This document shows positions 59,085 to 59,491 of a DNA stretch of 64,000 nt, piece by piece. Under the pieces are notes generated by a model. That model did no database searches. It was not told the origin of the DNA and was given only the letters and a program-made list of their open reading frames with translations. Each line of letters starts with the position of its first letter. The first letter of the stretch is position 1. The stretch is from Escherichia coli (GTDB lineage: Bacteria; Pseudomonadota; Gammaproteobacteria; Enterobacterales; Enterobacteriaceae), in assembly GCF_011045215.1 (NCBI RefSeq), contig NZ_CP049201.1; one strand, written 5' to 3'. The translations under genes were made by a program, and so were the position numbers.

Positions 59085-59390
59085 TCCATAATCGTACCAT
59101 CTTCAGCGCCTTTCAGAGCGAGATTGGCTTCGTAATATTTACCTTCAGCCATTAAGCTCTGCGCACTCCTCACTTTCTGCTGAGTCTGTTTTAAAGGCAT
59201 AAGCCACTGTGTTTCAGATATATTAATTCCTGCCAGTTGTAGTTTTTCAATTGCACCTTTTTTGTCACCTTTATCCAGTTTTTTATTTGCTTCATCGATG
59301 ACTTTCTGCTTTTCTGGCGTAGTTGTAAAATCTTCTGCCAGCGTCAGTTGACTGTTAATAATGACATAAATATCGCCCTCTTGAGGGTTT
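59085..59390 (-). pseudogene. YfdX-family gene remnant (C-terminal part only), truncated at its 5' end by the adjacent IS
   Basis: Reverse-strand translation gives ...EKQKVIDEANKKLDKGDKKGAIEKLQLAGINISETQWLMPLKQTQQKVRSAQSLMAEGKYYEANLALKGAEDGTIMDTISLH with no upstream start codon; absent from the ORF table; coordinates approximate. Confidence 0.45.
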
Positions 59391-59491
59391 TTTTATCTTT
59401 TCTGACCAAATGCGTATTTTCATGAAAGGAGATCACTCAATAACCCCCTGTGTCAGCATAGTTGTCGCCTCAACTTTTTAAGGAGATAACA

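Follow-up and report, generated by a model that had tools for sequence, protein, structure and literature searches.

In Escherichia coli K-12, yfdX (b2375) heads the yfdX-frc-oxc-yfdV-yfdE cluster, adjoins frc-oxc-yfdV-yfdE-evgSA, and is reported to be induced by EvgA (PMC6339873), in agreement with the first-pass annotation of the DNA studied here, which placed the K-12 gene in an EvgA-regulated locus. In Klebsiella pneumoniae, the YfdX family has been tied to acid stress and acid survival (PMC6394985). AppY- and YdeO-type regulators originating from mobile elements affect acid resistance (PMC10057817). A Sec signal peptide is predicted for YfdX proteins, and genes of this family are carried on a mobile island, the E. 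coli LHR island (PMC8067161). The closest intact relative of the gene described below is an island- or plasmid-borne paralog, WP_021580263.1 (203 aa), encoded in complete E. coli genomes by a 612-bp gene annotated as "YfdX family protein" and recovered by megablast. At the protein level, this paralog is 48% identical to K-12 YfdX, and it scores 233.4 bits against the NCBIfam model PRK10316, under the cutoff of 256 and thus below the equivalog level of that model. The solved YfdX structures 3DZA, 6UXT, and 6A02 align to its residues ~37 to 202. Eight intact loci of the paralog share one context, made up of two-partner secretion (TPS) genes, DUF4222, ProQ/FinO, a porin fragment, YfdX, ISL3, and DsbA-FaeA-PapB fimbrial genes.

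The locus analyzed here lies in a 64-kb stretch of E. coli DNA, referred to as the window. Bases 1 to 25000 hold core genes (pflB, rpsA, dmsA, and others) with 99.5% identity to O55:H7 and O157:H7 strains, and a genomic island follows the tRNA-Ser(GGA) gene at 40107-40194. Within this island, we found what is very probably a nonfunctional relic of a horizontally carried YfdX paralog, cut by an insertion sequence (IS) at about codon 89 and deprived of its 5' half by a second event. The features of the region, in window coordinates, are the following:

57834-58475, plus strand: AraC-family regulator ORF, YdeO-like, 213 aa, with Pfam HTH_18 and HTH_AraC domains
58634-58949: IS630-family transposase gene fragment, 316 bp, forming the 3'-side boundary of the yfdX relic
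58950-59065, minus strand: 3' untranslated flank of the yfdX paralog, ~94% collinear with the DNA downstream of intact yfdX in RM11911 and C5
59066-59410, minus strand: YfdX-family pseudogene remnant, 345 bp, the 3' 56% of the gene (from Pfam, TBLASTN, and alignment)
59066-59068, minus strand: yfdX stop codon
59069-59392, minus strand: residues 96 to 203, in frame
up to 59410, minus strand: residues 89 to 95 (LVRKDKK), in a shifted frame
59411-61106, plus strand: IS3-family insertion sequence, 1,696 bp, apparently intact
59411-59444: left inverted repeat (IRL) of this element, left terminus TGCGTATTTTCATG...
59492-60004, plus strand: orfA
61074-61106: right inverted repeat (IRR), ending ...GGTAATACGCA
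61107-62923, minus strand: unrelated island segment joined to the right end of the IS, with an 82-aa membrane ORF, an HTH protein (61613-62248), a DUF465 protein (62282-62524), and the 3' part of a 222-aa hypothetical gene
62924-64000, minus strand: ISEc12 (IS21 family), running off the window, with istB at 63009-63758

The match of the remnant to the YfdX family is far above chance. Read on the minus strand from 59392 to 59069, it translates as KNPQEGDIYVIINSQ...GTIMDTISLH (full reading, KNPQEGDIYVIINSQLTLAEDFTTTPEKQKVIDEANKKLDKGDKKGAIEKLQLAGINISETQWLMPLKQTQQKVRSAQSLMAEGKYYEANLALKGAEDGTIMDTISLH), followed by the stop codon at 59066-59068, and it covers positions 45 to 146 of the 149 positions of PF10938 with an E value of 2.9e-27 and 95.9 bits, against a Pfam gathering threshold of 26.6 bits. 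TBLASTN searches of the window gave E=2e-26 and 48% identity with K-12 YfdX as the query, and E=2e-58 and 94% identity over residues 96 to 203 with WP_021580263.1. The YfdX-like C terminus that the first-pass annotation had recognized on this strand is therefore confirmed, including by the K-12 TBLASTN comparison that it had proposed. The C-terminal motifs MPLKQT and YYEANLALKGAEDG of the K-12 protein, a member of the same Pfam family, are kept in the fragment. At the nucleotide level, window positions 58949-59408/59414 share 93.8 to 94.4% identity with the intact paralog in complete E. coli genomes (megablast), and the likeness of ~94% over 58949-59408 includes the 3' flank and the terminator. 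No closer intact allele was found, the best being 94.4% identical in nucleotides among complete E. coli genomes and 96% for the best protein cluster.

Since the remnant is only 48% identical to K-12 YfdX, we read it as a horizontally carried island paralog and not as an EvgA-locus gene of the K-12 type; the 94% identity to the island paralog and the PRK10316 score of that paralog, under the model cutoff, likewise speak against a K-12-type gene. In contrast to the position of K-12 yfdX at the head of the EvgA-induced cluster, the window copy sits in a serW-type tRNA island. None of the K-12 neighbors (frc, oxc, yfdV, yfdE, and evgSA) occurs in the window or in the intact paralog loci, and the relic is surrounded in the window by IS elements, the AraC gene, and an EAL gene. 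Carriage on a mobile island recalls the LHR island; its genes sHsp20, ClpK, and KefB were not seen among the window ORFs examined.

Compared with WP_021580263.1, the window copy lacks codons 1 to ~88, has a 1-bp frameshift, and lies in different flanking DNA. The lost part holds the start codon, the signal peptide, and the promoter, so that, of the elements of a complete gene, neither a start codon, nor an N-terminal signal peptide, nor a full domain is present. Because the solved structures cover residues ~37 to 202, roughly residues 37 to 88 of the structured region are missing. The frameshift lies in a G run at 59385-59387, which reads GGG in the window and GGGG in the intact alleles; this 1-bp deletion accounts for an in-frame TAA at 59393-59395 and for the displacement of residues 89 to 95 into another frame, and TBLASTN matched residues 89 to 97 of the intact paralog in this second window frame. 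The deletion is absent from the earlier reading of the locus and is added here. The absence of a start codon from the minus-strand frame, noted in the first-pass annotation, holds, as the only in-frame ORF initiated by ATG, GTG, or TTG is 44 aa long (59066-59200). The coordinates given there (59085-59440) do locate the remnant, but the lower one leaves out the stop codon and the five sense codons before it, and the upper one reaches 30 bp into the IS.

Similarity to the two aligned intact loci starts at 58949 on the 3' side, and 117 bp of the 3' flank is retained, including a terminator-like hairpin with a T-rich tail at 59029-59005 on the minus strand. On the other side, nucleotide homology to the intact alleles ends at 59408-59410, at the IS end. 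Bases 59409-59410 are AA in the window and GC in the intact alleles, and the window version matches no known intact allele; the exact yfdX breakpoint is uncertain, either 59408 or 59410, as is the origin of these two bases. Altogether, ~460 bp of the original locus (58949-59410) survives between two IS boundaries. The boundary on the 3' side is the IS630-family fragment, which matches IS630 transposase genes annotated across many E. coli genomes with 95.9% identity (positions 435 to 750 of the query 58200-58960).

Database annotation raises the question of whether the remnant still yields an N-terminally truncated YfdX-like protein of 91 to 101 aa with a residual cytoplasmic function. The same allele, conserved in several samples, is listed elsewhere by PGAP as "YfdX family protein" in WP_407862176.1 (101 aa), WP_434781608.1 (97 aa), and WP_409241078.1 (91 aa). 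However, the starts of these PGAP-called proteins (window 59066-59371) correspond to ATT or CTG codons in the DNA, there is no promoter-like site facing outward from the left end of the IS on the minus strand, and the Sec signal peptide expected of the family (PMC8067161) is gone together with roughly the first third of the structured region. Moreover, the conservation of the relic is explained by recent common descent, with only ~7 substitutions over 4.8 kb, noncoding parts included. We thus regard a functional product as highly improbable, and the 91- to 101-aa RefSeq entries are probably pseudogene fragments and should be treated as such.

The element that truncates the gene shows the main hallmarks of the IS3 family. 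The -1 frame is open at 59927-61029 and overlaps orfA at 59927-60004, with a GGGAAAAG motif at ~59961-59968. Reconstruction through a -1 frameshift at GGGAAAAG gives an OrfAB protein of 512 aa that ends at 61029, contains an rve DDE domain, and scores 209.7 bits over residues 76 to 463 against the NCBIfam model transpos_IS3 (NF033516; cutoff, 160 bits). Compared with near-identical copies in which PGAP annotates the programmed frameshift, the coding region of the window copy is free of indels. The ends of the element were set by aligning the window with four independent copies from E. coli, each with different surroundings, and the TG...CA termini (TGCGTATT... at 59411 and ...AATACGCA at 61106) are conserved in all four. 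This element thus shares two overlapping ORFs with a -1 frameshift, the DDE domain, and the TG...CA termini with the IS3 family, but it differs in its length of 1.7 kb, in a 75-aa N-terminal extension beyond the IS3 model, and in the duplications of 5 to 7 bp made by other copies. A length of 1.7 kb is long for the IS3 family, and characterized members generate a target-site duplication of fixed length, between 3 and 5 bp. Among the four aligned copies, three are flanked by duplications (7, 7, and 6 bp) and the fourth has none.

The first-pass annotation had placed the left end of an IS3-family element where the 5' part of the gene should be, and had suggested aligning the junction with the IS3-family terminus. 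This alignment, based on the four E. coli copies, sets the left terminus at 59411, exactly where the gene stops. An end of the gene precisely at an IS terminus would agree with a simple insertion, in which the IS split an intact yfdX and the 5' half continues directly past the right end of the IS; an insertion of just this kind, by a related IS with a 5-bp duplication, is found at codon 70 of the same paralog in another sample. Against this, the right flank has no similarity to yfdX from 61107 onward and matches a different island segment of E. coli C5, and the window flanks (GACCAAA on the left and AATATCC on the right) show no target-site duplication, unlike other copies with their 5 to 7 bp. 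A simple split is already refuted by the window sequence itself, which leaves it with practically no probability. The 5' half was not found in the 64-kb window by BLASTN or TBLASTN, nor within 10 kb on either side in the related contig L027, and a homology search with residues 1 to 97 found no partner of the relic, returning only the independent insertion of the related IS at codon 70.

The segment to the right of the IS (61107-62923) corresponds to positions 5292377->5290548 of the E. coli C5 chromosome with 98% identity. In C5, this segment lies ~45 kb from the intact yfdX, on the opposite strand, and C5 is uninterrupted where the right end of the IS sits in the window. Given an unrelated right flank and no 5' half in the window, the IS joins two DNA segments that were formerly not neighbors, an outcome usually caused by recombination between two IS copies that yields a deletion or an inversion. 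The lack of a target-site duplication together with the unrelated right flank indicates that a second, IS-mediated rearrangement removed the 5' half. On the reading we favor, that of an IS-cut relic reworked by such a rearrangement, the IS3-family element would have come to abut the yfdX paralog at about codon 89. A second event would then have removed or relocated the 5' half with its signal peptide, start codon, and promoter, most likely through recombination between two copies of the element that led to a deletion or an inversion. The 1-bp homopolymer deletion would then have added the frameshift, the IS630-family fragment would have cut off the relic on its 3' side, and the remnant would now be drifting without a role. 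We infer this order of events and the recombination mechanism. The orientation pattern relative to C5 would fit an inversion, although C5 need not be ancestral.

The same yfdX'-IS junction is present in six other public sequences (L021, L022, L023, L027, L028, and L029), from six other samples. The carriers comprise three draft genomes that belong to a single accession series, a metagenome contig, and contigs L027, L028, and L029; they were recovered by exact-protein lookups, in which the 145-aa and 44-aa ORFs led to short draft contigs and the PGAP-called 101-aa protein gave contigs of 17 to 63 kb. In the same lookups, the 206-aa HTH protein occurred only on metagenome contigs of <1 kb, and the 213-aa AraC ORF had no record. 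All six are 99.7 to 100% identical across the junction and keep the frameshift. L027 has a single substitution within the relic, at 59387, and over 58152-62924 it shows ~7 substitutions and a single 6-bp indel relative to the window. Since the same junction occurs in six other sequences, it is real and inherited: it is a single inherited event and not an assembly artifact. An exact 35-mer across the junction had no match in a collection limited to one genome per species.

A recombination breakpoint was also observed near 58150. Positions 56714-58151, which span the gene for the EAL-domain protein and the 5' portion of the AraC gene, differ from L027 at 60 positions in 1.4 kb, compared with the ~7 differences and the 6-bp indel in the 4.8 kb that follow.

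Independent events have struck the paralog elsewhere. The related IS at codon 70 (contig L025 of ENA ERZ15610165, 94-2089) is 76% identical to the window element, has the same ends, and made a simple insertion with the 5-bp duplication GGTGC. The protein cluster of the paralog also has a 99-aa N-terminal product ending near an A7C4 homopolymer. These two cases together indicate that the paralog has been inactivated repeatedly.

Beyond the right-flank segment, the window ends within ISEc12. From 62923/62924 onward, >2,000 E. coli records match this sequence, and the complete ISEc12 copy of EC958 (L026, 3201-5781) is 2,581 bp long with a 5-bp duplication. In the window, ISEc12 is inserted into the 222-aa hypothetical gene, and a 145-aa ORF at 62521-62958, whose start codon falls within the end of ISEc12, is the 3' part of that gene. 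The yfdX'-IS junction is identical in L027 and L028, which have no ISEc12 at this site, and the ISEc12 insertion is therefore later than the junction. This order bears on the possibility that the IS3-family element, the 1.8-kb segment, and the inverted ISEc12 entered yfdX as one composite transposon, with the 5' half lying past ISEc12. Such a unit is suggested by the identical 33-bp termini that bracket 61107-62923 in inverted orientation, and the outermost ends of both elements would be of the istA-proximal type. Yet L027 and L028 carry the junction with no ISEc12, and they continue collinear with C5 (PerC, helicase, and ImpA/VasL) for 8 kb with no yfdX sequence, so that entry as a single unit is only a very slight chance. 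Composite-transposon and three-copy models in which 62924-62956 would belong to a shortened second copy of the IS3-family element were also rejected, since this stretch is a normal ISEc12 terminus and ISEc12 is absent from otherwise identical loci.

The IS3-family element shares its outermost 34 bp on the left and 33 bp on the right exactly with the two ends of ISEc12 as present in EC958, and its right end has a 33-bp inverted match at 62924-62956, the ordinary ISEc12 terminus. The 76% identical relative in L025 keeps the first 60 bp of both ends unchanged. Furthermore, residues 1 to 52 of OrfA share 42% identity with residues 1 to 51 of the ISEc12 IstA, its N-terminal HTH (pairwise E of ~1e-5), and this HTH region of OrfA falls outside the span of the IS3 model (residues 76 to 463 of OrfAB). 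The OrfA N terminus showed no similarity to two other IS21-family IstA proteins, and OrfB had no significant similarity to the IstA catalytic region of ISEc12. The two elements differ in that ISEc12 is 2,581 bp long, encodes IstA and IstB, and has further internal terminal repeats; the 1,696-bp element encodes only OrfA and OrfB, with istA and istB absent and a transpos_IS21 score of 27.6 bits against a cutoff of 160. From these comparisons, the truncating element appears to be an IS3-type element with end-recognition modules in common with ISEc12, and end recognition may have been exchanged in modular fashion between IS families. A more specific proposal, that it is a cross-family chimera of an IS3-type catalytic transposase, an ISEc12 IstA-like HTH, and the outermost 33 to 34 bp of both ends, is put forward tentatively, as a possibility that we consider rather less probable than its contrary.

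A further arrangement of the two elements was observed in E. coli AR13438 (L024; NZ_CP097170.1, 1033646-1039498), where ISEc12 lies between two inverted copies of the IS3-family element. Each of these copies lacks its first 30 bp and is fused to internal end repeats of ISEc12. The result is a 5.85-kb palindromic composite with the istB-proximal terminus type of ISEc12 at both outer ends.

The first-pass annotation had taken the relic, together with an AppY-type regulator nearby, as a hint that the island once carried acid-stress cargo. An AraC-family ORF is indeed present, but its best NCBIfam model is YdeO (PRK09940; NF007407), with 169.6 bits against a cutoff of 348 bits and hence below equivalog level, and the AppY model is not among its NCBIfam hits. 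The 234-aa version of the regulator in L027 reaches 185.8 bits against the YdeO model. Compared with L027, the regulator region 57771-58475 has lost a single base at each of two sites, 57800 and 57821, both of which precede the GTG start at 57834. The 5' end of the regulator is probably damaged in the window, and the gene may be 5' frameshifted, starting only at this GTG.

On such an interpretation, the fragment and the YdeO-like regulator would be the remains of a former acid-resistance module of the island. The literature makes the idea reasonable, given that YfdX has been connected with acid stress in K. pneumoniae (PMC6394985) and, in E. coli, with EvgA (PMC6339873), and that mobile AppY/YdeO-type regulators affect acid resistance (PMC10057817); YdeO is the best model for this regulator, and the relic and regulator are neighbors in all related contigs. 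The genomic context, however, gives it no support. The IS630-family fragment separates the two genes, and similarity to other genomes is interrupted on both sides, first at 58208-58245 and then at 58949, which together indicate that the adjacency is secondary. An AraC regulator, gad, hde, oxc, frc, and evg are all missing from the eight intact paralog loci, the island ORFs that were checked showed no further acid-resistance gene, and the regulator falls well below the YdeO cutoff. A former module is accordingly unlikely, the claim of acid-stress cargo is unsupported, and the closeness of a YfdX fragment to a YdeO-like regulator should not be taken as a sign of an acid-resistance module.

The tRNA-Ser(GGA) gene (window 40107-41186) is followed directly by genes for DUF4942, DUF5983, CbtA toxin, IrmA, an Ag43-type autotransporter, and a YeeP-like GTPase, all on the minus strand. 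In E. coli islands, the module from DUF4942 to the YeeP-like gene usually lies at the far end. The interval from the tRNA to the DUF4942 gene showed no ORF, so that an integrase is missing from its usual place beside the tRNA. The position of a far-end module at the tRNA, together with the missing adjacent integrase, suggests a large-scale rearrangement of the island.

For the YfdX family, these results describe ordinary gene decay: the relic adds another IS-generated pseudogene to an E. coli island already riddled with IS elements and matters little in itself. The only item worth a further look is the sharing of ends between the IS3-family element and ISEc12, which would be of interest to the transposable-element field if not already described. 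If the chimera proposal were true, two unrelated transposition systems would recognize the same termini, and they could cross-mobilize, compete, or recombine. The shared termini might then also explain junctions without a duplication, such as the one at yfdX.
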